A stretch of 64,000 nt of DNA from Candidatus Aquilonibacter sp. (GCA_035702815.1 DASSZO010000092.1:7004-71003), one strand, 5' to 3'. Shown: positions 3,230-63,954, counted from the first letter of the stretch. Program-made: numbers and translations. Notes: generated from the letters alone by a model not told the origin.

Positions 3230-4357
3230 CTACTCGAATGTTACGAATGCTCCGCAGACGTCGTTTGCTACGAATCGGCCCTGCCGCGTGAGGCGCATCG
3301 CCCCATCGTCGACCACTAAGAGACCGGCGGCCGCGTACCGCTCGACGACCCGCCCGTAGTACGCGAGGACCTCGACGCCATACCGCTCTTTGAACTCCGC
3401 GAGACGGACCCCTTGCGCGGTACGCAACGCAAGCATGATCGCCTCACCCCACGCCTTGTGGGGTTCGAGGCGTTCGTACTCGGCCGGAATCGGAGCGCCC
3501 GCGACCGCGGCTTCCACGTACTCGTGCAGCTCACGGGTGTGAATACTGCGCGTGCCATCCCGGTACGACGCGGCCCCCACGCCGAAACCGATATATTCTC
3601 CGTTTTTCCAGTAATTGGCATTGTGCGCGCTGGAATGTCCCGGGCGTGCGAAATTGCTGATTTCGTAGTGTTCGAATCCGGCCTCGCCGAGCAGCGTAAT
3701 CGCTCGATCGTAGAGATCCGCCTCGTGTCCCTCTTGCGCGAATGCGGACGGCTCGCGCGCGAACCACGACGCGTACGGCGTTCCCTCTTCGACGGTTAAG
3801 CCGTACGTCGAAATATGATCGACGCCGAGCGCGATCGCCGACCGAAGCGACGCCTCCCACGAGGCCAGCGTTTGGCCCGGCACCGCAAAGATCAAATCGA
3901 GCGAGACGGATGCGATGCCGGCACTCCGCGCGAGACGCACGGCGCGTTCGATCTGCTCGGGCGTATGCTTGCGCCCGAGCGTGGCGATTTCGGCAGGCAC
4001 GAACGATTGGACGCCGATCGAGAGCCGGTTGACTCCGGCCGCCGCATAGCGATCGAAGTCCTCATCGCGCACGAGTTCGGGATTGATCTCGATCGTCGTT
4101 TCCGACACCGTCGAGGCCGCATTGTACCGATCGTTCAGAAGCGCAAGCAGCCGCACGATGGATTGCGGATCGTACGCATTGGGCGTTCCGCCTCCGAGAA
4201 AGATCGTACCGGCGCCTTCGGCAGGCGCCGCGTCGATCTCCGCCGTGAGCGCGTTCAGGTAGGCATCGGCACTGCTGCGGCGCATCGGCCACTTCGCGAA
4301 GTCGCAATAGGGACAGATGTACGGGCAAAACGGGAGATGGACGTAGATTCCAAGCAT
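3230..4357 (-). CDS. hemW: Radical SAM heme chaperone / oxygen-independent coproporphyrinogen oxidase-like protein
   Basis: MLGIYVHLPFCPYICPYCDF contains the CxxxCxxC radical-SAM cluster motif. About 375 aa, which is HemW-sized. Start trimmed to ATG 4357, because the longer ORF would overlap the upstream degV. Confidence 0.85.
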   Translation of the reverse strand: MLGIYVHLPFCPYICPYCDFAKWPMRRSSADAYLNALTAEIDAAPAEGAGTIFLGGGTPNAYDPQSIVRLLALLNDRYNAASTVSETTIEINPELVRDEDFDRYAAAGVNRLSIGVQSFVPAEIATLGRKHTPEQIERAVRLARSAGIASVSLDLIFAVPGQTLASWEASLRSAIALGVDHISTYGLTVEEGTPYASWFAREPSAFAQEGHEADLYDRAITLLGEAGFEHYEISNFARPGHSSAHNANYWKNGEYIGFGVGAASYRDGTRSIHTRELHEYVEAAVAGAPIPAEYERLEPHKAWGEAIMLALRTAQGVRLAEFKERYGVEVLAYYGRVVERYAAAGLLVVDDGAMRLTRQGRFVANDVCGAFVTFE

Positions 4358-4409
4358 GAGGCTCCGGCTCTCTTCGTCGCCGAAGCTCGCATTTACCGCG
4401 GTGCGCGCC

Positions 4410-5255
4410 TTAGGGCACGATTGCAAAGACGCCGATCGCGCCTTCGCCCATGTGCGAGGCAATCGTCAGCGTCGATTCGTGAATGAGTTCTTTGGCGGGT
4501 GGATGCCCCAGCTTTTCTTCGACCATTTTCTGCAGCTTGATAACGGTATCGGCGGCATGCACGTGTGAATATGCAACCCAAGCATTGGGCGCGTGCGCGA
4601 TCGTTCGCACGACCGCATCGACCATCAACTCCGTCGTCTTGTCATACGAGCGGCTCTGGCCGGCCGGAGCGATCGCACCTTGCTCGTTCATTTTGAGCAC
4701 GAGGCTGACGTTCAACATCGAACCGAGCGCGACGACCGCTTTGGGAAGGCGGCCGCTTTTGCCCAGCGCGTTCATGTTCGGAACGGAAAAATACGCTGCC
4801 GTCTTGAGCGTTGCGGGATCGATCTTTCGCGCGATCTCCGCGGCGCTCTCGCCGGCCTTCGCGCGTTCCGCCGCATAGATCGCAAGCAGTGACTCAAGAC
4901 CGCTGGCGCCGCGCGAGTCGACGACCTTCACGCGGTCGCCGAACGATGCGGCCGCCGCCGTTGCGTGCTCGAACGATTTAGAGATTTGCGACGAGAGCGC
5001 GATCATCACGACGTCATGTCCCGATCCGACGAGCCGGTTGAACACCGCCTGGTAATCCTCGGACCGCGCCGGCTCCGTCGTTACGTTTTCGCCGGCTTCG
5101 ACCCGGCGATAATAGGTTGTACGATCGATATCGACGCCGTCGCGCAAACGTTCCGAACCAAAAAGGATGTAGACGGGAACGACCTCGATTCCGTAACGGC
5201 TTGCTTCAGAGGGTGTTAGGTCGTTTCCGCTATCGGTGACGATCGTTACTGCCAT
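4410..5255 (-). CDS. DegV family fatty-acid-binding protein
   Basis: MAVTIVTDSGNDLTPSEASRYGIEVVPVYILFG is a typical DegV N-terminus. An AAGGAG-like SD lies upstream. Confidence 0.85.
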   Translation of the reverse strand: MAVTIVTDSGNDLTPSEASRYGIEVVPVYILFGSERLRDGVDIDRTTYYRRVEAGENVTTEPARSEDYQAVFNRLVGSGHDVVMIALSSQISKSFEHATAAAASFGDRVKVVDSRGASGLESLLAIYAAERAKAGESAAEIARKIDPATLKTAAYFSVPNMNALGKSGRLPKAVVALGSMLNVSLVLKMNEQGAIAPAGQSRSYDKTTELMVDAVVRTIAHAPNAWVAYSHVHAADTVIKLQKMVEEKLGHPPAKELIHESTLTIASHMGEGAIGVFAIVP

Positions 5256-5264
5256 CCTCGCTCC

Positions 5265-6119
5265 TTACTCGTCGGCTGCGACGAAGATTCCAACTGCACC
5301 CGCGCCGGCATGCGTTGCAATGACCGGCCCCGCTTCCAAAATTTCGAGCAGACGCGGCGCTGCGCCATTTAAACGTTCGGTCAACTTTGCCATCGCGTTC
5401 TCGGCCAGGTGCGGCGCGTTGGTGTGCATGACGAGAAACCGCGCCTTTTCCGGAGCAGGCGCGGCCGCCATCGCCAAGTCGAGCATCGTCTCTTGAGCGC
5501 GCGCGAAGGTTCGCACTTGCGCTTCGGCCGCGACTTGGCCATCTTTGAGCGCGAGTACCGGTACGATCCGCATGAGCGTTCCGAGCACTTGCTGCGCCTT
5601 GCCGATGCGTCCCGTCCGTTGCAGATGCGACAGATCGGGAATGCATGCGTAGAGGCGTTGCGTCGCGCGTTCGTGATCGAGCACGTGAAGAATCGCATCG
5701 AGCGAAGCTCCCGACGACGCCATCTCCGCCGCGCGCATGACCATCATGCCCAACCCGCCGGCCGCGCTCTGCGAATCGTAGATCGCGATGCGCTCGTCGC
5801 CGAGCGCCTGCGCCGCCGCGCGCGCGGCGTTGATCGTGCCCGAGAGAAACGACGAGATCGTGATGCAGAGCACCTGATCTCCGGCTTCGATCAACGGCGC
5901 AAACGCATCCTCGAACATCTGCGCGGTGGGTTGCGAGGTCGTCGGCAGATCCTTCTGCGTGGCGAGCATTTCGTAGAACTGCGGACGCGAAAGGTCGAGG
6001 TAGTCGCGATATCCGCGATTTCCGAACAGGACGAAAAGCGGCACGACGGTGACGCCGAGTTGCTCGGCGCGCTCGGGCGAGAGATCCGAGGTGCTGTCCG
6101 TAACGATCCTAATAGCCAC
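5265..6119 (-). CDS. DegV family fatty-acid-binding protein (tandem paralog)
   Basis: AIRIVTDSTSDLSPERAEQLGVTVVPLFVLFG. GTG start at 6119. Confidence 0.85.
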   Translation of the reverse strand: MAIRIVTDSTSDLSPERAEQLGVTVVPLFVLFGNRGYRDYLDLSRPQFYEMLATQKDLPTTSQPTAQMFEDAFAPLIEAGDQVLCITISSFLSGTINAARAAAQALGDERIAIYDSQSAAGGLGMMVMRAAEMASSGASLDAILHVLDHERATQRLYACIPDLSHLQRTGRIGKAQQVLGTLMRIVPVLALKDGQVAAEAQVRTFARAQETMLDLAMAAAPAPEKARFLVMHTNAPHLAENAMAKLTERLNGAAPRLLEILEAGPVIATHAGAGAVGIFVAADE

Positions 6120-6161
6120 CGATCAACATTCCTTTATCGATCTTCGAGAGGAGCGCCGCGC

Positions 6162-7172
6162 CTAGGCCTCTTTTGCCAGGTGCGGCGTGATCAATTCCGT
6201 GATCTTTCCAACGACGTCGTTCTCAGCTTCAGCGATGGCACTGCCAATCGCGTTTTTGATGCCGCGTCGCGTCACGCGCCCGTGCGTGTAGAAACAGTTT
6301 CCTCGCAAGCCCAAGAGCGGCGCGCCGCCGATCGTCTCGTAATCAAAGCGCTTGCCCAGATTGCGCAATGCCGGCGCCAACAAGAAGGCGCCGACCTTCG
6401 TCATGATTCCGCCGCCCAGCAGCGTGTCTTTGATCACCTTACCCATCGCCGAGACCATGCCTTCGCTCGTCTTGAGCAGGACGTTTCCGACGAAGCCGTC
6501 GGCGACGATCACGTCGGCGACGTTGTAAAACAGATCTTTGCCTTCGATATTTCCGATGAAGTTGACCGGCGCTTTCTCCAGGAGTGCGGCAGCCTCGAGC
6601 ACTTGGGTATTGCCTTTGGTTCGCTCTTCACCGATCGACATGACCGCGACACGCGGCGAGGCGATGCCGAGGACCGCCTTCGCATACGCCGATCCCATGA
6701 TGCCGAACTGTTCGAGCCATTCAGGCCGGCAATCGACGTTTGCGCCGGAATCGAGCAAGACGAAATTTCCGGTAAGCCCGGGCCAGACGGTGGCGATGGC
6801 GGGACGCGCGACACCTTCGATCGTGCGCAATCGAACGAGGGCAATCGCGAGGAACGCGCCGCTGTTTCCCGCCGAGACGACGGCGTCAGCGTCGCCGTTC
6901 TTGACCATCTTCACGGCGATTCCGAGCGAAGTCTTGTCCGACGAGCGCAAGGCTTGCGACGCGTGTTGATCCATCGGAACGGCCTCGGGAGCGTGGACGA
7001 CCGCAATGCGATCGGCGCCGGGGCCCCGCAGCAGCGCACGCACGCGCGGCTCGTCGCCGACGAGCGTTAACTCTGCGTCGAACTCATTGGCCGCCAGCAA
7101 CGCACCGGCGACGATTTCTTCAGGCGCATGGTCGCCGCCCATGGCGTCGATTGCGATGCGTGCTTTACTCAT
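6162..7172 (-). CDS. plsX: Phosphate acyltransferase
   Basis: RIAIDAMGGDHAPEEIVAGA is the PlsX signature. 336 aa. 8-nt overlap with the upstream gene's stop. Confidence 0.95.
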   Translation of the reverse strand: MSKARIAIDAMGGDHAPEEIVAGALLAANEFDAELTLVGDEPRVRALLRGPGADRIAVVHAPEAVPMDQHASQALRSSDKTSLGIAVKMVKNGDADAVVSAGNSGAFLAIALVRLRTIEGVARPAIATVWPGLTGNFVLLDSGANVDCRPEWLEQFGIMGSAYAKAVLGIASPRVAVMSIGEERTKGNTQVLEAAALLEKAPVNFIGNIEGKDLFYNVADVIVADGFVGNVLLKTSEGMVSAMGKVIKDTLLGGGIMTKVGAFLLAPALRNLGKRFDYETIGGAPLLGLRGNCFYTHGRVTRRGIKNAIGSAIAEAENDVVGKITELITPHLAKEA

Positions 7173-53525: not shown

Positions 53526-53927
53526 TCAATGACGGGATGCGTGCGTGCCGGCCTTGTGATAGCCTTCCTTGACGGCCTGGCTCGGGCACATGTATTTGCC
53601 GTGCTTCGTGCGACCGTAATAGGGATCGTTCGGCTCGTGGTAGACGTGCGTCTTGGTGTTGACCCACACCGCTTGCACGGCACCGCACTGCATGTTCGGC
53701 GGCTGCGTCGCAAGCGTTCCCGGCGCCATCGGTTCTCCCGACGCGTCGATTCCCCCCATGGGAGCGTTGGCCGCGGTACTCGGCGACGGATTGGCGCTCT
53801 GGTCCGTCATGACGCCGGCGCTTTGCGCGGCTTGCGTCTGCGTTTTCGTCGTCGAACTCGAATGATGACCGCCACACGCGCAAAGCGCGCTCATGACGGC
53901 GAGGGCAAACAGGTTACGGAATGACAC
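53526..53927 (-). CDS. Small lipoprotein with a low-complexity linker and a ~45-aa C-terminal His/Cys/Tyr-rich domain
   Basis: MSFRNLFALAVMSALCACGG is a lipobox-like signal. A Ser/Thr/Gln/Ala/Pro linker follows, then a C-terminal CGAVQAVWVNTKTHVYHEPNDPYYGRTKHGKYMCPSQAVKEGYHKAG. The GTG start overlaps the upstream stop by 14 nt. Confidence 0.6.
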   Translation of the reverse strand: MSFRNLFALAVMSALCACGGHHSSSTTKTQTQAAQSAGVMTDQSANPSPSTAANAPMGGIDASGEPMAPGTLATQPPNMQCGAVQAVWVNTKTHVYHEPNDPYYGRTKHGKYMCPSQAVKEGYHKAGTHASRH

Positions 53928-55212
53928 GTTCGGTTATCTCCTTTACCTTCTGCTGTGCTAAGCGGGCGAGTGGTGAGCGTTCTCCCATATACACGCGGCT
54001 GCCGCCGACGAATGCTGCCTGTACCCAGCTATCTTGCCCACGATAGACCACACCGTTGACTTCGGGCGTCCAGGCGTCGATCGCCGACGCATCGAGCACG
54101 AGGAAGTCGGCCGCATTGCCCGCAGTCAGGTCGCCCGCATCGATAGCAAGCGCGCGCGCGCCTTGTGCGGTGCCAAGATCGAACGCGACGGACGCGCCCA
54201 ATGCGCTGCCGTCCGTGCGCGCGATTTTCTGTAGCAACGTCGCTGCGCGCATCTCGTCGATCAAAGACGGCTTGACGTCGGCATCGGTTCCCAGGCCCAT
54301 GATCACCCCCAGGGCCTGCAACTGCGTCACGTCGCAAATGCCGTCGCCGAGGTACTGATTGGTCATCGGATTGTGGATCACGCGCGCGCCGCGTTCGGCG
54401 AGCAATCGTTTCTCTTCTTCGGTAATGTAGATCGCGTGGATCGCCACCGTCCGCTCGTTGAGCGCATCGAGCCGTTCCAACAGCACGATCGGAGTCGCGC
54501 CGTGAGCTTGGAGCGTCGCTTCACCTTCGTACGACGCTTCCGCGGCATGGACGTGCATCATGCAATCGTAGGTGCGCGCAAAATCCGAGGCCGCGCGAAT
54601 CATCGCGTGCGAAGCCGCGTGTAACGAGTGCGGCGCGACGCAGACATTTGCCCACGGATAGGCGTTCATCAATTCGAGCGTTCGGCTTTGCGCTTCGTCG
54701 ATCGATTCACGAAACGCGGGCGGCGCGTACTCGGCATCCATCCACGTCCGCGCGAACACGAGCCGAATTCCCGTCTCGCGCGCGGCTCGAATCGCGGCCT
54801 CGGCGTGCGCGTTCCCGCGACCATTGAGATAGAAGAATTCGGCGACCGTCGTAATGCCCGCGGCGAGCATCTCGCTGAACGCGGCAACGAAGGTCCAGTA
54901 CACGTCATCCGGTGTCAGCTCCGGAACGACTTTATAGAGTGCGTCGCTCCTCCATTTTGCAAACGTCCAATCGTCGGCCCATCCGCGAAGCAGAATCTGG
55001 TACGCGTGACTGTGCCCGTTGATAAAGCCGGGGACGATGAGCCGGTCTTCGGGAAAGGAGCGGCTCGACGGCGCGGAACTGCGCGCGGCGACCACGGCGA
55101 AATCGCCGGCGTCTTCGATCCGTCCATCGCGCACGACGAACGCATAATCCCGCCGCGTCCGGCCGCCCGCGATTGCGCGCGCGCAGCGAACGAGCTCATG
55201 CGACGACGTCAT
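53914..55212 (-). CDS. Amidohydrolase-superfamily deiminase (formimidoylglutamate deiminase HutF-like)
   Basis: PGFINGHSHAYQILLRGWADD..WR is an HxH metal motif in a HutF-like context. Also HVHAAE and GLGTDA. ATGA overlap with hutI. Start trimmed to ATG 55212. Confidence 0.7.
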   Translation of the reverse strand: MTSSHELVRCARAIAGGRTRRDYAFVVRDGRIEDAGDFAVVAARSSAPSSRSFPEDRLIVPGFINGHSHAYQILLRGWADDWTFAKWRSDALYKVVPELTPDDVYWTFVAAFSEMLAAGITTVAEFFYLNGRGNAHAEAAIRAARETGIRLVFARTWMDAEYAPPAFRESIDEAQSRTLELMNAYPWANVCVAPHSLHAASHAMIRAASDFARTYDCMMHVHAAEASYEGEATLQAHGATPIVLLERLDALNERTVAIHAIYITEEEKRLLAERGARVIHNPMTNQYLGDGICDVTQLQALGVIMGLGTDADVKPSLIDEMRAATLLQKIARTDGSALGASVAFDLGTAQGARALAIDAGDLTAGNAADFLVLDASAIDAWTPEVNGVVYRGQDSWVQAAFVGGSRVYMGERSPLARLAQQKVKEITERVIP

Positions 55213-56438
55213 ATGAGCACCCCGCGATGAACGACGGCCGATGCAAGATTGCCGCCATGCTGCCAACCGAACTCGTCGGGCGAGCTGATGTCGAGTGCAA
55301 CGAAATCCGCAACGCCGCCGGGCTCCAAAACGCCCGCATCGCTGCGCAACGATTTCGCTGCCGCGACGGTAACGCCGAAGAGCGCCTCCGCGGCGGTCAT
55401 ACCGAAGAGTTTGCGCCCGAAGTACGCAACCGTCTGCAGGTTGAAACACGGCGACGTTCCGGGGTTGTAGTCGCTCGCGAGCGCAACGGCGCCGCCGCGT
55501 TCGAGCAATTGGCGTACGGGCGCCTTTTGCGGCAGATCCAGATATGCGATCGTTGCGGGACAGGCGACGGTAACGGTGCCGCTCTGCGCGATCGCGCGAA
55601 CATCGTCATCCCGAATGCAATTGCAGTGATCGACGGCATCGACGCCCAGGTCGACGGCCATCTCGGCCGCGTGCCCAAACTGCATCTCGTCGCAATGCAC
55701 GCGCAGACGCATGCCCGCGTCGCGGCACGCCTGCAGGTAGCGGCGTGTTTGTTCAGGCGTGAAAAAACCCGGTTCGCAGAATGCGTCGGCGTACACCGCC
55801 CCGTGCGCGTGCGCGAACGGGACGACCTGATCGATCAAATAGTCGACGTAAGCATCTTCGCGTGAGAATTCCGGCGGAAGCGCGTGCGCGCCAAGAAACG
55901 TTGCGATCATCGTCGGAACGTCTTCGTCTTCTCGATGTGCCGCGATGAGGTCGAGCAGTTCGGTTTCACCCGGTTTGTGCAGCGCGTATCCGGTCTTGGT
56001 CTCGAGCGTCGTGGTTCCGTGCTCGAGGAGCGTGCGGAGGCGGCGATGGATCGTATGAGCGTAGAAGTGCTCGGGCTCGAGCAACGCGGTGCGCGTCTGC
56101 TCCACCGTATAGAGCATGCCGAGCGCCGGTTTTTCGCCGCGCTGCCGCGACGCAAAATCCGGTTCGCGATCGCCGGCGAAGAGCGGATGCGCGTGCGCGT
56201 CGACAAAGCCGGGAACGACGACGGCGTCGCGCAGATCGAGCTCGCGCAGGGTGCGGCCCGTAAGCGAAGGCTCGATCTCCGCCCATCGGCCGAGCGCGGC
56301 GATGCGACCGCCTTCGACGATCATCGCCGCGTCGTCGATCCGCCCGAGATCGTCGAACGTGACGCCGTGTTGAGCGGCGTCACGAGCGCACGGGATGATG
56401 GTTTTGGCGCGGACGAGGATCGGAACTACAGGCGCCAA
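55209..56438 (-). CDS. hutI: Imidazolonepropionase
   Basis: [29 protein letters not shown] and [14 protein letters not shown] start overlaps the hutU stop by 13 nt. Confidence 0.9.
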
Positions 56439-58087
56439 TCGATGCCCTTTGCATCGGCGGTTTCAACGGCGATCTCGTATCCGGCATCCGCGTGGCGAAC
56501 GACGCCCATGCCGCAGTCCGTTGCAAGCACCGCGGCAAGACGCTCGTGGGCATCCTGCGAACCATCGGCGACGACCACCATACCGGCGTGCAGACTGTAT
56601 CCGATGCCGACGCCGCCGCCATGGTGAAAACTCACCCAGTGCGCGCCCGCCGCCGTATTGAGCAGCGCGTTGAGGATCGGCCAATCGGCGATCGCGTCGG
56701 ATCCGTCCTTCATCGATTCCGTCTCGCGGTACGGCGACGCGACGCTTCCCGTATCCAAGTGATCGCGCCCGATGACGATCGGCGCCGACACTTCGCCGCT
56801 CTTGACCAGTTCGTTGAAGCGCAATCCCGCCTTCGCGCGATCGCCGTAGCCAAGCCAACAGATGCGCGCCGGAAGTCCCTGGAACGAGACGCGCTCTTGC
56901 GCGAGTTTGATCCATCGCTGCAGCCCCGCATCGTCGGGGAACAGGGCGAGCAATTCTTGATCGAGCCGATGGATGTCTTTGGGATCGCCCGAGAGTGCGG
57001 CGAAGCGGAATGGCCCCGAACCCTTGCAGAACAGCGGGCGCACGAACGCCGGCACAAAGCCCGGGAACGCAAATGCGCGACCGAATCCCGCACGCTGCGC
57101 TTGCGCGCGAATATTATTGCCGTAGTCGAACACGATCGCTCCGGCGTCCAAGAATTTGACCATCGCTTCGACGTGCTTGCCGCAGCTTTCGAGCGCGCGC
57201 CGTTCGTACTCTTCGGGAGAACGCGCACGTAACGCCGCCGCTTCGTCGAGCGTAACGCCTTCGGGAACGTAGCCGTTGATCAGATCGTGCGCGGACGTTT
57301 GATCGGTGACGGCGTCGGGACGAAATCCCAGATCGTACAGCTCCCAGAACTCGGTTGCCGCATTGCCTTCGTATCCGATCGAGATCGCGGTGCCGGCCTT
57401 GCGCGCGCGCTCGACTTCACGCAGCGCCTCGTCGCGCGAATCGACGACCACGTCCAGATAGCGCAGGTCGCGACGGCGATCCAAGCGCGAGCGGTCGACG
57501 TCGACGACGAGCGCGATGCCTTCGTTCATCGTGATCGCAAGCGGCTGGGCGCCACCCATGCCGCCGATACCCGCCGTCAAACAGACGCGGCCCTTGAGCG
57601 AGCCGCCGAAATGTTGGCGCGCAAGCTCCGCAAACGTCTCGTACGTTCCTTGAACGATGCCTTGCGTGCCGATGTAGATCCACGACCCCGCCGTCATCTG
57701 GCCGTACATCGTCAAGCCTTGCGCCTCGAGCTCGCGGAAGACTTTCCAATCCGCCCACTTCGGCACGAGATTCGAGTTGGCAATGAGCACGCGCGGCGCA
57801 CGTTCGTGCGTCTTCCAGACCGCCACCGGCTTGCCGCTCTGCACGATCATCGTCTCGTCGTTCTTGAGCCGCCGCAGGGTGCGCACGAGCGCATCGAACG
57901 CCTCCCATGAACGCGCGGCACGCCCGTTTCCGCCGTACACGACCAAATCGTCCGGCCGTTCGGCAACCTCGGGATCGAGATTGTTCATCAACATGCGAAG
58001 GGCGGCTTCTTGCGCCCACCCTTGACACGATAGCTCGGTACCGCGGGCGGCGCGAACCGTGCGCGCGCCTGAAACTGTGCTCGTCAT
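56426..58087 (-). CDS. hutU: Urocanate hydratase
   Basis: [47 protein letters not shown] and [12 protein letters not shown]. Start trimmed to ATG 58087 (553 aa). Confidence 0.95.
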
Positions 58088-58136
58088 AGTGCTCGGACAC
58101 TTACGGCCAACGCTAACGGGCGCCTCTCGAACGGTC

Positions 58137-58165
58137 TTGACATGTTTCGATATATCGAATAGTGT
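58137..58165 (+). promoter_or_regulatory. Candidate promoter with an embedded 14-bp perfect palindrome (operator candidate) between hutU and the wHTH/PadR genes
   Basis: TTGACA (58137-58142), a 17-nt spacer, then TAGTGT (58160-65). The spacer contains the perfect palindrome TTCGATATATCGAA (58146-58159). The ATG of the 82-aa ORF is only 7 nt after the -10 box, implying a leaderless or near-leaderless mRNA. Confidence 0.45.
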
Positions 58166-58171
58166 CGAGCC

Positions 58172-58420
58172 ATGACGTATGACGTACTCGCTGTCCTCTG
58201 GGCGGGACCCGGGACGGAGATCGAGGTGGTACGTGCCGTGGGCGAGCGTCTCGGTACGCCGATAAGCCGCAACGCCGTCGACGCGCACCTGCGCCTGCTT
58301 CGGACGACCGGACACGTGCGCACGCTCAACCTCGCCGGCACCACCGCCTACGCGTTAACGGAGAGCGGTTCGGAGCTTCTCTCGACCCTCGCGGAGAACG
58401 AATTACATGTTTGCCTTTAA
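58172..58420 (+). CDS. Small winged-helix-like protein, 82 aa
   Basis: The pattern VLAVLWAG...EIEVVRAV...[22 protein letters not shown]...AYALTESG resembles a wHTH recognition helix plus wing. Overlaps the PadR start by 14 nt. Confidence 0.5.
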
Positions 58421-58889
58421 GCACGGGCGCCATCACGGACTCGGAATGCGCGGTGGACGCGCACGCGGCGAGATGAAGTACGAGATTCTCCAATGTCTCG
58501 CACATGGACCGCGCCACGGCTACGACATCATGCTCGAAATCGAATCGAAGACGGGGATGCGGCCCAGTCCCGGTTCGATCTATCCCGCGCTACAGATGCT
58601 CGAAGACGGCGATTTCATTCGCGGTCAGGAGCGCGATGGAAAGCGCACGTACGAGATCACGGACAAGGGACGCGAACTCCTCGCGCAGCGCGAGCGCCCC
58701 CAGGACGAAGGCGCCGAAGATGAATCGTTTTACGGCGTGATCGCCGAAGCGATGCGCCAGGTTCACGGCATCAAAGATGCAGTCAAACAAATCGCGCGCA
58801 GCGGGAATCTCGACATGTACAAAAAAGCCGTAGCCGTGCTCGACAAGGCGCGGCGCGAGCTCTTCGCAATTCTCGCCGATCATGTCTAG
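58407..58889 (+). CDS. PadR family transcriptional regulator
   Basis: EILQCLAHGPRHGYDIMLEIESKTGMRPSPGSIYPALQMLEDGDFI...YEITDKGRELL. Confidence 0.85.
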   Translation: MFAFKHGRHHGLGMRGGRARGEMKYEILQCLAHGPRHGYDIMLEIESKTGMRPSPGSIYPALQMLEDGDFIRGQERDGKRTYEITDKGRELLAQRERPQDEGAEDESFYGVIAEAMRQVHGIKDAVKQIARSGNLDMYKKAVAVLDKARRELFAILADHV

Positions 58890-60268
58890 CGGCGCAAGCC
58901 GCGCAGAATCTTGCCCTCCGTGTTCAGGTAATAGGTCGCAGGATCGAAACGAGACGAGCCGGCGAACATCAGATAGAGATACTTGAAGTTCTCGCTGAAA
59001 CTGTAGGCCGGGAAGTGGTCGCCGACTGTCATCGGCGTCGTGCGAATGTCCGTCAAGACGGTGTATCCGTTCTCAACCCGGCAGTGGTCGCGTACGGCGA
59101 GGAAGTAGTCGTACGCGGTGCGCCGGTATTTTTCATCGCCGGTGAGAAACCACAGATCGAACGCGGAGTTCGCGTACTCGGGGCGCAATCCGTAGCGCGG
59201 ATCGGTAATCGCCATCGTTGCAACGTCGATCTCTTCCGGAAAGATCCCGTACTTCTGCAGTACGGCCGTCCACGAATCGTAGAACGCGGCGCCGACGTCG
59301 CGCCGCCCTCCTTTGGCGACCAGTTCGGCGTAGAACGCCGAAAGCTCGGTAAGGCGCGTATTCCCCGTCGGCTTGCCCGTGGTGTAATCCGTCGTCGCAA
59401 ACCACAGATGTCCGCCGTAGTGCACGCTGTTATAGCGCAAGAGCGGTTCGGTGACCAGATCGTACCAGGCACGGCACTGCCCGACGTGCAGCATCTGCCA
59501 ACCGCCCCACAAGTATTCGTAAAACGAATCGACGGGTTCGTCGGGCGCAACGTCGTCGTGATCGATGAACTCCCCCGATTCGACGTCGAAATTCGTGCCA
59601 AGGAGATCGAGCGGCGATCGCTTCGCGATCACGGTCCGCAGCGCGCGCATGGAAGCATCGAGGTACTTTGGATCGCCCGTCAACCGCGACAGATCGCCGA
59701 ACTCCAGAATATTGCTGCCGATCTCCGCAAGATTCGATTTCGGATCCGAGACGGCGCCGGTTTTGAGATTTGCGAAACGGTACGGCGCGCTGCTTGGCGA
59801 TTTGGTAAAACACGGCAAGAGGCGGTCCGCCAAATCGCGCGCGCCGTCGAGCATGAATCGCTCGCCCGTCGCGTAGTATCCGGCCAAAAGCCCGGCGACC
59901 ATCCGGATCACCGCCTCGAACATTTGGACGTTCGCGTCGACGTCGAAGTCGAGATGCGCGCGCAGCCATGCCACGCAAGCGTCGAGTTCGTCGTCGAGTT
60001 CCATCACGTAGAGCGTGTCGAGCGCTTCGATGATCGACAGCCCGAAGGAATGCGACGGAACGAAAAAATTCGAAGGCGTTCCACTCACGGGTTTGACTTC
60101 ATCGGCGCCCCACGCGAAGCGCTTATATCCCGTCCACGCGTGCAGAAACTCCGCGCGCACCGCGTCGGCAACGCTCTTTGGCGTAGGCGTCGCACCGAGC
60201 AGGAACGGCCCCGTCGCACACGCTGCCAAACCGCCGAGAAACCAGGATCGCCGCATCGATCGAGTCAT
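58886..60268 (-). CDS. Secreted glycoside hydrolase family 47 (class I alpha-1,2-mannosidase-like)
   Basis: FLHAWTGYKRFAWGADEVKPVSG, GLSIIEALDTLYVM, RPEYANSAFDLWFLTGDEKYRR and ENFKYLYLMF match the GH47 conserved blocks. N-terminal MRRSWFLGGLAACA signal. Its stop shares a CTAG with the PadR stop. Confidence 0.85.
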   Translation of the reverse strand: MTRSMRRSWFLGGLAACATGPFLLGATPTPKSVADAVRAEFLHAWTGYKRFAWGADEVKPVSGTPSNFFVPSHSFGLSIIEALDTLYVMELDDELDACVAWLRAHLDFDVDANVQMFEAVIRMVAGLLAGYYATGERFMLDGARDLADRLLPCFTKSPSSAPYRFANLKTGAVSDPKSNLAEIGSNILEFGDLSRLTGDPKYLDASMRALRTVIAKRSPLDLLGTNFDVESGEFIDHDDVAPDEPVDSFYEYLWGGWQMLHVGQCRAWYDLVTEPLLRYNSVHYGGHLWFATTDYTTGKPTGNTRLTELSAFYAELVAKGGRRDVGAAFYDSWTAVLQKYGIFPEEIDVATMAITDPRYGLRPEYANSAFDLWFLTGDEKYRRTAYDYFLAVRDHCRVENGYTVLTDIRTTPMTVGDHFPAYSFSENFKYLYLMFAGSSRFDPATYYLNTEGKILRGLRR

Positions 60269-60323
60269 CCGATGCCCTTCGAGATCGGCATCACGCCATT
60301 CCCCGTCAATCCGAGCTTATCGT

Positions 60324-60434
60324 TGTCATCCTGAGCTCGCCTCTGTCATCCTGAGCTTGTCGAAGGACGTCCCTCGACAAGCTCGGGATGACAGAGACAA
60401 GCTCGGGATGACAGAGACAGCTCAGGATGACAGA
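60324..60434. repeat. Nested palindromic repeat element built from 20-nt tandem units (REP/MITE-like)
   Basis: Two forward units start with TGTCATCCTGAGCT (60324, 60344). Three inverted units follow: GACAAGCTCGGGATGACAGA at 60376-60395 and 60396-60415 (identical), and GACAGCTCAGGATGACAGA at 60416-60434. The centre is at ~60368. Lies between the hutH stop and the GH47 start. Confidence 0.8.
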
Positions 60435-60446
60435 AGGGGACGTTTG

Positions 60447-61994
60447 CTACAACGATTCGCCCGTCGCGCGCTCCGCGGCGGCGACCAAGGCACCGCTGCC
60501 GATGAGTTCGCGCGCGGCTTCAATATCCGGTGCGGGGATGCGGTCCTCGGTCCACGGTGCGATCGAGATCCGCGCGAGATCGTACGCGGCTTGCGTGCCC
60601 GTTCCAGATTTGAGCGGACGGCGAAAATCCGTTGCGGCCAATGCGCCGAGCAGTTCGCACGCGAGTGCGCCCTCAACGTTATCGAGAACGCGAACAAGGT
60701 TATTCGCCGACGTCATGCCCATGCTGACGTGATCCTCTTGTCCGGCCGACGTCGGGATCGAGTCGACGCTCGACGGCCACGCGAGCCCCTTATTGTCGTT
60801 CACGACGGCTGCCGCCGCGTATTGCACGATCATCAATCCGGACTGCAATCCGGAACGGCCGGTGAGGAAGAGCGGCAGACCGCGATCTTCGGCGTTGAGC
60901 AACAGATAGAGGCGCCGTTCGGCGATCGACGCCAACTCGCTGATCGCAAGCTTGAGAAAGTCGATTGCGAGCGCGATCGGTTCGCCGTGGAAATTTCCAC
61001 CCGAGAGAAACTCGCCGTCTTCGGGAAAGACGAGCGGATTATCGGTGACCGAATTCGCCTCGACTTCCGCGACCCGCCGCACGTGCGCGATCGAATCGCG
61101 AACCGCGCCGTGAACGACCGGAATGCAGCGGAACGAATACGGGTCTTGCACGCGTCCGCACTCGCGGTGCGACAGCATGATCTCCGAACCGGCGAGAATC
61201 GCGCGCAAATTGGCGGCGACGCGTGACTGGCCGGGATGCGGCCGAAGATCGTTGATGCGATGATCGAAGACGCGATCCGTACCGAGAAACGCTTCGAGCG
61301 ACATTGCGGCGATCACGTCGGCGGCAGCCGCGAGGCGCTGCGCGCGCAGCACGCCGAGCGATGCAACGCCGGTCATCATCTGCGTGCCGTTGATGAGCGC
61401 GAGGCCCTCTTTCGGCCCGAGCGTCACCGGTTGCAACCCGGCCTGCGCGAGCGCAGCAGCGCTCGTCATCCGCTCGCCGCGATAAAACGCCTCGCCTTCG
61501 CCGATGAGCGTCAGCGACATGTGCGCGAGCGGCGCCAAGTCACCGCTTGCGCCGACCGATCCCTGACATGGAACGACGGGAACGACGCCGCGATTCAAAC
61601 ACGCCGCGATCAGTTCCAGCGTCTCGAGTTTGACCCCGGAATGACCGGCGGCCAGCGAATTGACGCGTAACGCGCAGGCGGCGCGAACCAACCGAATGTC
61701 GAGCGCCGGACCGGTGCCCGAGGCATGGCTTCGCACGAGGTTGAGCTGGAGTTGCGCGGCGTCTTTGGGGTCCACCGGCACGTTGGCCAGCCGGCCGAAC
61801 CCGGTCGTGACGCCGTAGATCGCCTGGCCGTCGGCGAACCGCTCGTCGACGAACGCGCGCGCCCGCACGACGCGTTCGCGCGCCGCTTCCGAGATCGCAA
61901 GCAAAGCGCCGTCCGCGATCGCTTCGACGGCTTCCAGGGTCAGGTGACGGCCGTCCAACTCGACGGTGGACGAGGGCTTCTCGGTCGTGGTCAT
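60447..61994 (-). CDS. hutH: Histidine ammonia-lyase
   Basis: GSVGASGDLAPLAHM is the MIO-forming ASG triad. Also YGVTTGFG and GGNFHGEP. Confidence 0.95.
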   Translation of the reverse strand: MTTTEKPSSTVELDGRHLTLEAVEAIADGALLAISEAARERVVRARAFVDERFADGQAIYGVTTGFGRLANVPVDPKDAAQLQLNLVRSHASGTGPALDIRLVRAACALRVNSLAAGHSGVKLETLELIAACLNRGVVPVVPCQGSVGASGDLAPLAHMSLTLIGEGEAFYRGERMTSAAALAQAGLQPVTLGPKEGLALINGTQMMTGVASLGVLRAQRLAAAADVIAAMSLEAFLGTDRVFDHRINDLRPHPGQSRVAANLRAILAGSEIMLSHRECGRVQDPYSFRCIPVVHGAVRDSIAHVRRVAEVEANSVTDNPLVFPEDGEFLSGGNFHGEPIALAIDFLKLAISELASIAERRLYLLLNAEDRGLPLFLTGRSGLQSGLMIVQYAAAAVVNDNKGLAWPSSVDSIPTSAGQEDHVSMGMTSANNLVRVLDNVEGALACELLGALAATDFRRPLKSGTGTQAAYDLARISIAPWTEDRIPAPDIEAARELIGSGALVAAAERATGESL

Positions 61995-62085
61995 GGCGCT
62001 AGACTTCCGGCCGTGCCCCCGCGCCTCCCGGGCTGCGACCTAGTTGGCGGGACTACAACCGCAATTAGGTTAAACTAACTTCACG

Positions 62086-63954
62086 ATGCGACGCCTCTTC
62101 GCGGTCCTTGCCTGCGCCCTGGTCTGCGCGCTTGCCCTCCTGCCGGTCTGCGTGCGGGCCGACGCTGACGAGCCCGCCGGGGTCAACCCGGTAACCCTCG
62201 GCCTCCAACCGCTCAAGGGCGCCGTCCCGGCCGCGACCGCGGCGCCGGGAGAATCGAGAAGCGTTCCGCGTCCCGACGGAACCGTTGCTGCGGTGCCGCA
62301 GACAAGCGGTCGTATCAAGACGTTTCATCTCGTCGAGCGTCTCGCGCCGTGGACTCTGCGTCCAGGGCTTACCGTGATGGCGCGAACGTACAACGGTGTC
62401 GTGCCAGGTCCGGTCCTGGAAGTCAATCAAGGCGACACCGTCGTCATCGAGTACGCGAACGACTCGGACATGCCGGACACCATTCATCTCCACGGCATCC
62501 ATAGCACCGCCGTCGACATGGACGGCGTCGCGGGAATTTCGCAGCCGCTGGTGCCGCCGGGCGGCCATTACACCTACCGTTTCGTCGCCGATCAACCCGG
62601 AACGTTCATCTACCACACGCACGGCACCGAGGCGATGCTCGATTCCGGACTCTATGGCGCGATTATCGTTCGGCCGTTGCATCCGCGTCCGGAAGAGCGC
62701 AACATCGCGCGCGACTACGTCGAGGTCATTTCGTCGTGGTCGATCCAGAGCGGCGCGGAAAACCACTTCACCCTCAACGGAAAAGAATATCCCGCGACGA
62801 CGCAACTGCAGGTTCGCAAGGGTGAACGCATGCGCATTCGCTGGATCAACATTTCCGGCGAAGAGTGGCACACGATGCACACGCACGGCCACGATCAACT
62901 CATCATCGCGCGGGATGCGCAACCGCGCAGCCAGCCCGACCTGCAAGACACCGTCGCGCTCGGACCGGGACAGCGCGCCGACGTCGTCGTTACCGCAAAC
63001 GCAAAGCCCGGAACGTGGCTCGTGCACTGCCACGTCGGCGACCACGTGCAGGACTCGCACTCGATGCCCGCGGGTTTGATCACCGCGATCCATTACGAGG
63101 GAACGCCGGACACCTTTGCATCGATGTACGACGCGATGATGCCGATGATGTCGCACGGCGGCCCGACCCCGCTCTCGATGCGCGACACCGTGTTGCTCGG
63201 CGCGATCGCCGGAATGACGATCTTTCTCGGTCTGCCGATCGCGCGTGCCAAGCGTTTATCGCCCAAAGCCGTCGCGATTCTCAATGCGATCGCCGTCGGG
63301 ATCCTCGTCTTTCTCGTCGTCGAGATCGCGCATAACGCAACGCAGCCGTTGACCAACGCGTTCACGGTCTGGCACGCCGGCCAAGCCCCGTTTCCACTCT
63401 GGCTGAGCATCGTGTACGTCGCCGGCCTCGCGATCGGGCTCATCGGTCTCGGCAGCGCGTCGCACCAATTTCTCAAACGCCATCAGGGCGACGTTGCCGA
63501 CAATCCGTGGGCGCTTTCGGCGGTCATCGCGTTCGGCATCGGCGCGCATAATTTCGGTGAAGGTCTTGCAATCGGCGCATCGGCGGCAAGCGGCGCGACC
63601 GCGCTTGCGATCGGACTGATCGTCGGCTTTGCGTTGCACAATGCAACCGAAGGGTTCGGGATCGCCGCGCCGATGACGGGACGCATGGTGCCGTCGTGGG
63701 GGCAGATCGCGCTGGCCGGGCTCGTCGCCGGCGGACCGACGTTCGTCGGTACGGTCGTCGGATACTATTTTTCGTCGCCGCTGCTCTCGGTGTTCTTTTT
63801 AACGATCGCAGCCGGCGCGCTCGTCTTCGTCATCGGCGAACTGTGGAGCGTACTCAAACGCACGGGCGTCACGAGCGCGGTGACGACCGCGCTCACCTGC
63901 GGTTTCGTCATCGCGCTCGTGACCGAGATGATCGTCGATCTCAGCGGCGGCTAA
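62086..63954 (+). CDS. Fusion protein: signal peptide, two-domain multicopper oxidase, Met-rich linker, and 8-TM ZIP-family metal permease
   Basis: MCO ligand blocks TIHLHG, FIYHTHG, WHTMHTHGH and LVHCHVGDH..M. ZIP signatures GAHNFGEGLAIG and ALHNATEGFGIA. Continuous 622-aa ORF. Confidence 0.85.
   Translation: MRRLFAVLACALVCALALLPVCVRADADEPAGVNPVTLGLQPLKGAVPAATAAPGESRSVPRPDGTVAAVPQTSGRIKTFHLVERLAPWTLRPGLTVMARTYNGVVPGPVLEVNQGDTVVIEYANDSDMPDTIHLHGIHSTAVDMDGVAGISQPLVPPGGHYTYRFVADQPGTFIYHTHGTEAMLDSGLYGAIIVRPLHPRPEERNIARDYVEVISSWSIQSGAENHFTLNGKEYPATTQLQVRKGERMRIRWINISGEEWHTMHTHGHDQLIIARDAQPRSQPDLQDTVALGPGQRADVVVTANAKPGTWLVHCHVGDHVQDSHSMPAGLITAIHYEGTPDTFASMYDAMMPMMSHGGPTPLSMRDTVLLGAIAGMTIFLGLPIARAKRLSPKAVAILNAIAVGILVFLVVEIAHNATQPLTNAFTVWHAGQAPFPLWLSIVYVAGLAIGLIGLGSASHQFLKRHQGDVADNPWALSAVIAFGIGAHNFGEGLAIGASAASGATALAIGLIVGFALHNATEGFGIAAPMTGRMVPSWGQIALAGLVAGGPTFVGTVVGYYFSSPLLSVFFLTIAAGALVFVIGELWSVLKRTGVTSAVTTALTCGFVIALVTEMIVDLSGG

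Follow-up and report, generated by a model that had tools for sequence, protein, structure and literature searches.

Multicopper oxidases (MCOs), cupredoxins and DyP peroxidases are the partner types of iron permeases of the Ftr1/EfeU kind, and in Fet3p-Ftr1p, EfeUOB and FtrABCD an extracytoplasmic oxidase of this sort is coupled to a permease in a system that is induced by metal starvation. ZIP permeases, which play a central part in the metal nutrition of organisms ranging from bacteria to humans, carry divalent cations and are treated as simple carriers of them. A pairing of MCO1 with a ZIP permease in Nitrososphaera viennensis was reportedly described by Kerou in 2016, among others. MCO1 and a ZIP gene are immediate neighbours in most ammonia-oxidising archaea (PMC7785015, PMC5817080, PMC5767755), the N. 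viennensis pair being NVIE_000600 and NVIE_000590 (Reyes 2020, Herbold 2017), and it has been proposed, without test, that Cu+ is oxidised to Cu2+ for uptake by the ZIP, by analogy with Fet3/Ftr1 (PMC7785015). Here we describe a gene in which two such partners form a single protein. It lies in a stretch of 64,000 nucleotides of DNA (GCA_035702815.1, DASSZO010000092.1:7004-71003; the window, by which we mean the whole of this stretch) from Candidatus Aquilonibacter sp., an uncultured soil bacterium of the phylum Eremiobacterota. From N- to C-terminus the gene encodes a predicted Sec-type signal peptide, a two-domain MCO, a Met-enriched linker and an eight-helix ZIP permease.

The archaeal pair is the only precedent that we found, and it is a non-covalent one. 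It goes unmentioned in the preliminary description of this DNA, which was made from the sequence alone and which knew of no characterised covalent MCO-ZIP fusion; that statement holds in the literature searched, where no MCO-ZIP, cupredoxin-ZIP or cytochrome-ZIP fusion is described. Compared by literature description, the archaeal system resembles ours in that a two-domain MCO is partnered with a ZIP permease, but its partners are encoded by separate adjacent genes in archaea rather than as one polypeptide in a bacterium, and the proposal made for it concerns copper, whereas the regulatory signal at the window gene is of the Fe/Mn (DtxR) type. The likeness to Fet3p-Ftr1p, EfeUOB and FtrABCD lies in the coupling of an extracytoplasmic oxidase to a permease, in the metal-starvation induction that we suggest below, and in the partner types MCO, cupredoxin and DyP, all of which recur among sister ZIP fusions. 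The permeases themselves differ, however: those of Ftr1 and EfeU carry REXXE motifs whereas the window permease is a ZIP with HNxxEG motifs, and the window protein matched no Ftr1 or EfeU family in Pfam or NCBIfam. The partners here are also covalently fused, unlike those of the Fet3p-Ftr1p type, and the Fet3p-type oxidase has three domains where the window oxidase has two and is probably trimeric. The fusion protein lies outside the Ftr1/EfeU transporter family; it may function like a member of it.

The features of the gene, with the evidence for each in brackets, are as follows.

62086-63954, plus strand: complete MCO-ZIP fusion gene (open reading frame; 100% identical protein P0001)
62086-62160, plus strand: predicted Sec-type signal peptide, residues 1-25 (hydropathy and conserved residues; cleavage predicted between VRA and DADE)
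62161-62316, plus strand: N-terminal extension of the mature oxidase, residues 26-77, with motifs GLQP and PAPGES (invariant or near-invariant columns)
62317-62685, plus strand: cupredoxin domain 1, residues ~78-200 (Pfam Cu-oxidase_3, invariant His)
62698-63105, plus strand: cupredoxin domain 2, residues ~205-340 (Pfam Cu-oxidase_2, conserved ligands)
63106-63177, plus strand: Met-enriched flexible linker, residues 341-364, with motif MxxAM (Met content, low model confidence)
63178-63951, plus strand: ZIP permease domain, residues 365-622, eight transmembrane (TM) helices, ZupT/GufA-like (NCBIfam, profile, AlphaFold2)
63547-63564, plus strand: metal-site motif HNFGEG of TM4, residues 488-493 (aligned with BbZIP; H488, N489 and E492 invariant)
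63637-63654, plus strand: metal-site motif HNATEG of TM5, residues 518-523 (aligned with BbZIP; H518, N519 and E522 invariant)

The open reading frame comprises 622 codons and a stop and, as first reported, is uninterrupted. Among 5.8 billion proteins searched, one was identical, P0001, again from Candidatus Aquilonibacter sp., and all 119 further clusters among the matches listed have equal length and domain content, with 64-79% identity over those aligned. Their named sources are almost all Eremiobacterota (Aquilonibacter, Cybelea, Tumulicola, Baltobacteraceae and Vulcanimicrobiaceae). In a metagenome scan the full-length fusion was confirmed by tblastn at 415 loci from many samples, on contigs some of which reach 3.4 Mb. 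Because the same full-length architecture is found in 119 cluster representatives and at 415 metagenome loci, the fusion is real, and the worry raised earlier over a frameshift or an assembly join is answered. That a frameshift, an overlooked stop or the joining of two neighbouring genes during assembly produced it is vanishingly improbable: no support was found for such an origin, its sole foothold being that the window comes from a metagenome-assembled genome (MAG), and apart from the confirmed loci and their long contigs it would have to contend with an uninterrupted protein of ~620 residues in all the aligned representatives and with invariant residues inside the linker itself. Across a large group of Eremiobacterota the fusion is almost universal, and public databases contain it already, under automatic names. 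To the question of whether the architecture was already common and functionally described, the answer is therefore divided: common it is, within Eremiobacterota, but no functional description appears in the literature searched. The fusion itself is uncharacterised, and the new leads, presented below, are a conserved operator of DtxR type and the broader occurrence of ZIPs fused to redox domains.

A partial copy of the fusion, P0047 (599 residues, 69% identical to the window protein), is found on a 2-kb contig labelled Candidatus Nitrosotalea sp.; it most likely represents a mis-binned Eremiobacterota contig rather than an archaeal fusion.

The N-terminal half is a small two-cupredoxin MCO, in agreement with the preliminary description. 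Pfam Cu-oxidase_3 (residues 97-197, E=6.8e-31) and Cu-oxidase_2 (residues 223-323, E=1.1e-29; E, expect value) both match strongly within residues 97-323, and the top solved relatives are two-domain MCOs, 2zwn (2.9e-52) and 3g5w (6.3e-46). Foldseek comparison with two-domain MCOs gave template-modelling scores (TM-scores) of about 0.75-0.78, normalised to the target, at 33% identity. All 12 copper ligands are present, in the four blocks and the canonical order originally recognised, each of them invariant or conserved in 118 of 119 sequences. In the 119-member alignment H134, H177, H179, H262, H265, H267, H269, H314, C315, H316 and H320 are invariant, and position 136 is His, and position 327 Met, in 118 of the 119. 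Residues 41-80, ahead of the first ligand block, are modelled by AlphaFold2 with a predicted local distance difference test score (pLDDT) of 86-97.

The histidines of the trinuclear cluster fall in four HxH motifs (H134/H136, H177/H179, H265/H267 and H314/H316). Domain 1 contributes HLH (134-136) and HTH (177-179) to the cluster and has no type-1 Cys, whereas HTMHTHGH (262-269) and HCHVGDH (314-320) in domain 2 supply the type-1 site and the remaining half of the cluster. The type-1 residues H262, C315 and H320 are invariant, and in domain 1 the Cys is replaced by Thr or Ser. In the alignment with 2zwn, the YHTH of our protein lies opposite YHCH, and its domain 2 HCH lies opposite HDH; with YHTH in place of YHCH in domain 1 and HCH in domain 2, the protein has its single blue-copper site in domain 2. 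The two cupredoxin domains and the full ligand set are thus shared with the metagenomic laccase mgLAC (2zwn) and the Nitrosomonas europaea blue copper oxidase (3g5w), but those proteins carry the type-1 Cys in domain 1 and the window protein carries it in domain 2, as do the Streptomyces small laccases. It departs from two-domain MCOs also in having a Sec rather than a Tat signal and a membrane transporter at its C-terminus. Solved two-domain MCOs are trimers whose trinuclear clusters form at the interfaces of their subunits; since the ligands here are split between two domains in the same manner, a trimer is expected, and by this analogy the fusion protein probably works as one.

Export is predicted to be of the Sec type. 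Residues 1-29 form a hydrophobic segment by hydropathy, and A25, D26 and D28, around the predicted cleavage site, are invariant in the 119 homologues, so that a signal peptide of residues 1-25 is plausible and differs by a single residue from the 1-26 given at the outset. Conservation does not extend to the Arg pair, and all 119 homologues lack a consensus for twin-arginine translocation (Tat), which argues for Sec; Tat export was rejected on the first of these grounds, and lipoprotein anchoring because Cys22 is not conserved. If the protein leaves the cell by the Sec route, the oxidase must fold and acquire its copper outside the cell.

For the C-terminal half, AlphaFold2, a profile comparison with BbZIP and Foldseek agree on the complete eight-helix ZIP with paired HNFGEG and HNATEG motifs that had been proposed. 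The full-length model (pLDDT 81.9, predicted template-modelling score 0.60) has eight helices after the linker, and the ZIP domain modelled alone has eight long helices at a pLDDT of 91.9. The top ten Foldseek matches to the latter are all BbZIP, at probability 1.00 and TM-scores of 0.59-0.65, the next match coming at E=0.02. A single-sequence search against the PDB gave nothing and a family profile was required; the profile of the clade matches BbZIP at E~6e-12, spanning TM1-8. In this profile alignment HNFGEG lies opposite H177/N178/E181 of BbZIP and HNATEG opposite Q207/D208/E211. Where BbZIP has the TM6 Glu E240, our protein has T552, within an invariant GGPTF, and the second metal site is for that reason probably altered. 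The anatomy that had been proposed (signal peptide, two-cupredoxin MCO, Met-rich junction and full ZIP) and a topology in which the oxidase faces outward are consistent with all of these results.

Standard family models recognise this domain less readily. The Pfam scan that had been recommended, which was so clear for the oxidase, gave for Zip 23.2 bits (residues 478-581), under the cut-off of 35.1; other members of the clade exceed that cut-off, namely P0164 (49.3), P0190 (46.5) and P0176 (42.9). The NCBIfam model for ZupT (NF003243) matches residues 368-613 over profile positions 8-261 of 266 (E=1.4e-11), but at 44.2 bits against an equivalog cut-off of 252, so that the protein is a relative of ZupT and not a ZupT orthologue. 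Throughout the clade, the motifs HNF[SAG]EG and HN[A..]TEG are spaced exactly 30 residues apart. The corresponding motifs of Escherichia coli ZupT are HNFPEG and HNIPEG, with Pro in both, where the window clade has Ser, Ala or Gly in one and Thr in the other. With ZupT/GufA, a type that imports divalent metals broadly, and with BbZIP, the clade has in common the eight-helix fold and the pairing of HNFxEG in TM4 with HNxxEG in TM5; it differs from ZupT/GufA in its DtxR-type control and in being often fused to redox domains. It is best regarded as a ZupT-like yet distinct subfamily.

The regulatory signal upstream of the gene is the following.

62065-62078, palindromic, no strand: 14-bp putative operator TTAGGTTAAACTAA, of the TTAGG-N4-CCTAA type (IdeR consensus, conservation)

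This site lies ~20 nt upstream of the start codon. The 19-mer at 62065-62083 agrees with the IdeR iron-box consensus TTAGGTTAGGCTAACCTAA (PMC4598388) at 15 of 19 positions, and no other site among the 64 kb of the window scores as high as 13 of 19. In related loci, which were anchored on the conserved mature N-terminus, TTAGG-N4-CCTAA is present at 9/10 or better in 55 of 56, with 41 perfect copies, and not one of 916 background windows reaches 9; the consensus across these loci is TTAGGC[GA][TC][AG]CCTAA. Scans around the start found no sigma-70 promoter or terminator, and Rfam gave no riboswitch or other RNA element. A second 9/10 palindrome, TTAGGTCCTCCAAA, at 2087-2100 of the window, falls within a coding region, close to where two minus-strand open reading frames meet, and was dismissed as a probable chance match because of that location.

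Sites of this type are not confined to the fusion. Stand-alone ZIPs of the clade are widespread, among Chloroflexota, Actinomycetota (Streptomyces, Nocardioides and Rhodococcus among them), Peribacteria, Melainabacteria, Dormibacterota and others, and upstream of 55 of 82 stand-alone ZIP genes from other phyla there is a T[TA]AGG-N4-CCT[TA]A at 8/10 or better, as against 20 of 1480 background windows. Of the 80 top-ranking genome loci for the ZIP clade, 18 have a DtxR-family gene (19 loci if L005 is included) within the flanking DNA that was counted, which extended at most 6 kb to either side of the ZIP gene. None of the 80 comes from an ammonia-oxidising archaeon, and at three stand-alone loci inspected no oxidase lies beside the ZIP gene. 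An MCO occurs in only one of the 80, L017, and there it is fused. At this locus (4133-6774) a second type of MCO-ZIP gene has an IdeR-like gene immediately before it, with a 4-nt overlap at the GTG start of the fusion, and a 9/10 palindrome precedes the pair. The L017 fusion (631 residues, P0125 type) is ~50% identical to the window protein; it is carried on a 2.05-Mb MAG contig labelled uncultured proteobacterium, and its closest named relatives are from Eremiobacteraceae. The regulator is closest to Mycobacterium tuberculosis IdeR (1fx7) and keeps the primary-site ligands M10, C102, E105 and H106. NCBIfam assigned none of the regulators to MntR or DtxR, all falling under the equivalog cut-offs.

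One subgroup of these regulators stands apart. In DtxR-family proteins from Gaiellales and Acidimicrobiia (L037, L051, L058, L065, L072, L025 and L005), HxHADExGD(T/S) is found where IdeR has HAEACRWEH, so that the usual Glu and His ligands at 105 and 106 are missing; this subgroup is paired with TAAGG-N4-CCTTA.

A repressor-type operator implies induction by metal starvation and hence points to an uptake device. The account that we put forward, tentatively and as a serious possibility that stops short of being probable, is that the fusion protein is a metal-starvation-induced, oxidase-coupled importer that resembles Fet3-Ftr1 and EfeUOB but uses a ZIP permease, with iron as the likeliest metal. 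A metal-loaded DtxR-family repressor would switch the gene off and metal starvation would switch it on, as the conserved site suggests. The Sec-exported two-domain MCO would be tethered outside the membrane to the ZupT-like ZIP by the short Met-enriched linker and, in a trimer, would form an oxidase cap over three ZIP protomers. There it could oxidise a reduced metal ion, most likely Fe(II), by one electron at the permease mouth, and the oxidised ion would be handed to the pore, thereby coupling redox speciation to import. Of the mechanisms offered in the preliminary description, self-metallation of the oxidase appears the least likely, because a DtxR/IdeR-type operator favours uptake under Fe or Mn starvation.

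Several points weigh against this account, some of them bearing on manganese and some on copper. Its chief weakness is that we know of no characterised ZIP that transports Fe(III), the product of Fe(II) oxidation. It is also built throughout from sequence comparison and predicted structures. Neither the window nor the 3-kb flanks of related loci contain a DtxR gene, and L017 is the only MCO-ZIP locus with an Fe-type regulator. In all 16 of the regulators inspected beside stand-alone ZIPs, residue 10 is E, D, H or R and residue 102 is D, E, H, Q or A, which, at the positions of IdeR M10 and C102, appears to be an O/N-donor pattern of the Mn type (a metal-selectivity rule for DtxR and MntR was reportedly given by Guedon and Helmann in 2003). 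Nor can the type of operator separate Fe from Mn, because the Deinococcus Mn sensor DR2539 binds ATTTTAGTCGCGCCTAAAAT, a palindrome of the same type (bioRxiv 10.1101/2024.02.12.579695).

The Mn-type regulators and the resemblance of the operator to the DR2539 site would suit a different arrangement. Under starvation the ZIP would take up Mn(II), or some other divalent ion that is redox-inert, and the oxidase would be a gatekeeper at the pore mouth, oxidising competing or toxic Fe(II) and Cu(I) and so removing them. The ligands typical of divalent cations are retained at the ZIP metal site, the fused partners are one-electron oxidants able to act on Fe(II), and Mets that bind Cu(I) would be explained as well; in acidic soils rich in Fe(II), selectivity would be sharpened. 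We nevertheless think this, although a serious rival, unlikely, as no precedent for such a mechanism was found, the L017 fusion is paired with an Fe-type regulator, a thioredoxin-like domain fused to one sister ZIP fits no oxidant role, and the argument proceeds by inference at every step.

The points that bear on copper come from the linker and from the nearest relatives of the oxidase. The linker, in which residues 354-360 are modelled as disordered (AlphaFold2 pLDDT <50), contains two to six Met per ~28 residues, or 11.8% Met as compared with 2.5% for the whole protein. M347 and M351, within the MxxAM motif, are invariant in the 119 homologues, while the remaining linker Mets are variable and the His of SHGG is not conserved. 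The parallel drawn earlier with the Met/His clusters of CueO and Ctr1 is borne out, then, for the enrichment in Met and for the invariant pair but not for the other Mets or for His. CueO is a three-domain, Tat-exported and soluble protein in which a Met-rich helix covers the type-1 site. The window protein resembles CueO and PcoA in having a Met-rich segment tied to an oxidase, and in that its closest stand-alone MCO relatives lie in copper-efflux contexts, but its Mets belong to the linker between domains, where just two are invariant. Those relatives, 37-53% identical, come from Chloroflexota, Paenibacillus, Cohnella and other taxa, and two of the three contexts inspected are copper contexts: at L169 (1976-6023, Chloroflexota), genes for a CopA-like P-type ATPase and YHS-domain proteins lie immediately upstream of the stand-alone MCO, and at L168 (4069-6071, Chloroflexota) the MCO follows an HMA-domain gene and has a cupredoxin nearby. 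Both look like copper-resistance operons with the small oxidase in the role of CueO, and these contexts, together with the Met-enriched linker, suggest an oxidase lineage that acts on Cu(I).

It might therefore be supposed that the fusion serves to acquire copper, the linker capturing Cu(I), the MCO oxidising it to Cu(II) and the ZIP importing the product, on the model proposed for archaeal MCO1 and its ZIP. The invariant M347 and M351 and the CopA-like, YHS and HMA neighbours of the stand-alone oxidases would fit, and a Cu(II) product suits the divalent preference of ZIPs. Archaeal MCO1 adjoins a ZIP gene, and both are mildly induced under Cu limitation (PMC7785015, PMC5817080, PMC5767755). 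The operator and the adjoining regulators, however, belong to the DtxR/IdeR/MntR family, whose members sense Fe or Mn and not Cu; no context of the CsoR, CopY or CueR type was seen at the loci; the cytochrome c, DyP and thioredoxin-like sister fusions are not specific to copper; and the parallel with the archaeal pair is one of literature description, not of sequence. On balance copper acquisition, although also a serious rival, seems to us improbable, and we return to an oxidase-coupled importer of iron as the tentative reading.

Wider evidence comes from the ZIP half, which in a search of 1.84 billion representative proteins matched 1903 at E<1e-3 and 104 at E<1e-30. Among the best 150 matches to the ZIP half, the following architectures occur.

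MCO then ZIP: P0121, P0125
ZIP then MCO: P0181, P0208
ZIP with cupredoxin: P0137, P0150, P0165 and others
ZIP with cupredoxin and DyP peroxidase: P0179
ZIP with cytochrome c: P0149, P0190
ZIP with thioredoxin-like domain: P0216

The MCO domains of the window protein, P0125, L017 and P0208 form one subfamily, with 47-68% identity and the same ligand pattern. The ZIP of P0208, in contrast, groups with cupredoxin-, thioredoxin- and DyP-fused ZIPs (48-55%) and not with that of P0125 (38-41%). Because the ZIPs group apart while the MCOs group together, the two gene orders have separate origins, and this speaks for a functional connection of the modules; and the recurrence of redox-ZIP fusions suggests that redox chemistry at the pore mouth is their common theme. 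It is conceivable, and we would rate it about as highly as iron import by the window protein itself, that the HNFxEG/HNATEG clade is an unrecognised class of redox-coupled ZIPs under DtxR-family control and an independent invention of the oxidase-plus-permease principle. In such a class, an extracytoplasmic one-electron module (a two-domain MCO in either order, a cupredoxin, a cytochrome c, a DyP peroxidase or a thioredoxin-like domain) would set the oxidation state of the metal at the ZIP pore. The Eremiobacterota MCO-ZIP would be its most abundant fused form, and archaeal MCO1 with its ZIP the unfused counterpart.

The fusions also bear on whether the two halves of the window protein are coupled at all. 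The ZIP might merely anchor or co-localise a laccase-like oxidase, or supply it with copper: two-domain MCOs are often laccases that act on organic substrates, to judge from the PDB names of the relatives, and a Sec-exported oxidase must obtain copper outside the cell. We consider this very unlikely. The invariance of H488, N489, E492, H518, N519 and E522 and the preservation of the whole eight-helix fold exceed what an anchor would need, the independent fusions occur in both orders and with other redox domains as well, and the metal-repressor operator suits uptake.

If the window protein is indeed an oxidase-coupled importer, a ZIP permanently joined to an oxidase would make redox speciation part of ZIP-mediated uptake. 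As a single polypeptide, it would provide a tractable system for the question raised by archaeal MCO1 and its ZIP. It would also bear on how metals are acquired by Eremiobacterota, which are abundant but uncultured in acidic peat and boreal soils, where the chemistry of Fe(II), Mn(II) and Cu(I) comes into play, and the conserved operator offers a handle on a DtxR-family regulon in a phylum that has no genetic system.

Three of the sister architectures have features of their own. In P0179 (691 residues) the chain of ZIP, cupredoxin and DyP mirrors EfeU/EfeO/EfeB, with the ZIP in the place of EfeU. P0181 (620 residues, ZIP then MCO), a single metagenomic sequence, has QCH for HCH and so lacks one type-3 copper His; this may be an error or a variant site. 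In P0161 and P0164 (593 residues) the ZIP is followed by a cupredoxin-like segment, with a weak Pfam match in P0161 only, and by a helical C-terminal domain of ~250 residues that has no match in Pfam, NCBIfam or the PDB. An identity of this last domain with the M75-like part of EfeO was considered and, without any match, is unsupported; it could be a new extracytoplasmic metal-handling domain.

An exact look-up of the window protein gave no gene call on record, and the genomic context of the fusion gene was read from the close homologues L001 and L002. The gene stands alone: the neighbours in L001 match those in the window, with histidine-utilisation (hut) genes upstream on the opposite strand and a convergent gene downstream, and those in L002 are unrelated. 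No chaperone, reductase or regulator recurs beside the Eremiobacterota fusion gene in the related loci. In the window, the hut cluster lies divergently upstream, at 53914-61994 on the minus strand, and it and the genes between its members are as follows.

53914-55449, minus strand: amidohydrolase, probably formimidoylglutamate deiminase
55209-56438, minus strand: hutI
56426-58315, minus strand: hutU
58407-58889, plus strand: PadR-family regulator gene, between hut genes
58886-60268, minus strand: gene for a glycoside hydrolase of family 47 (mannosidase-like), between hut genes
60447-61994, minus strand: hutH

This arrangement is shared with L001 but not with L002, and the hut cluster is for that reason probably unrelated to the fusion. 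The glycoside hydrolase encoded between the hut genes belongs to a family, GH47, that is mostly eukaryotic.

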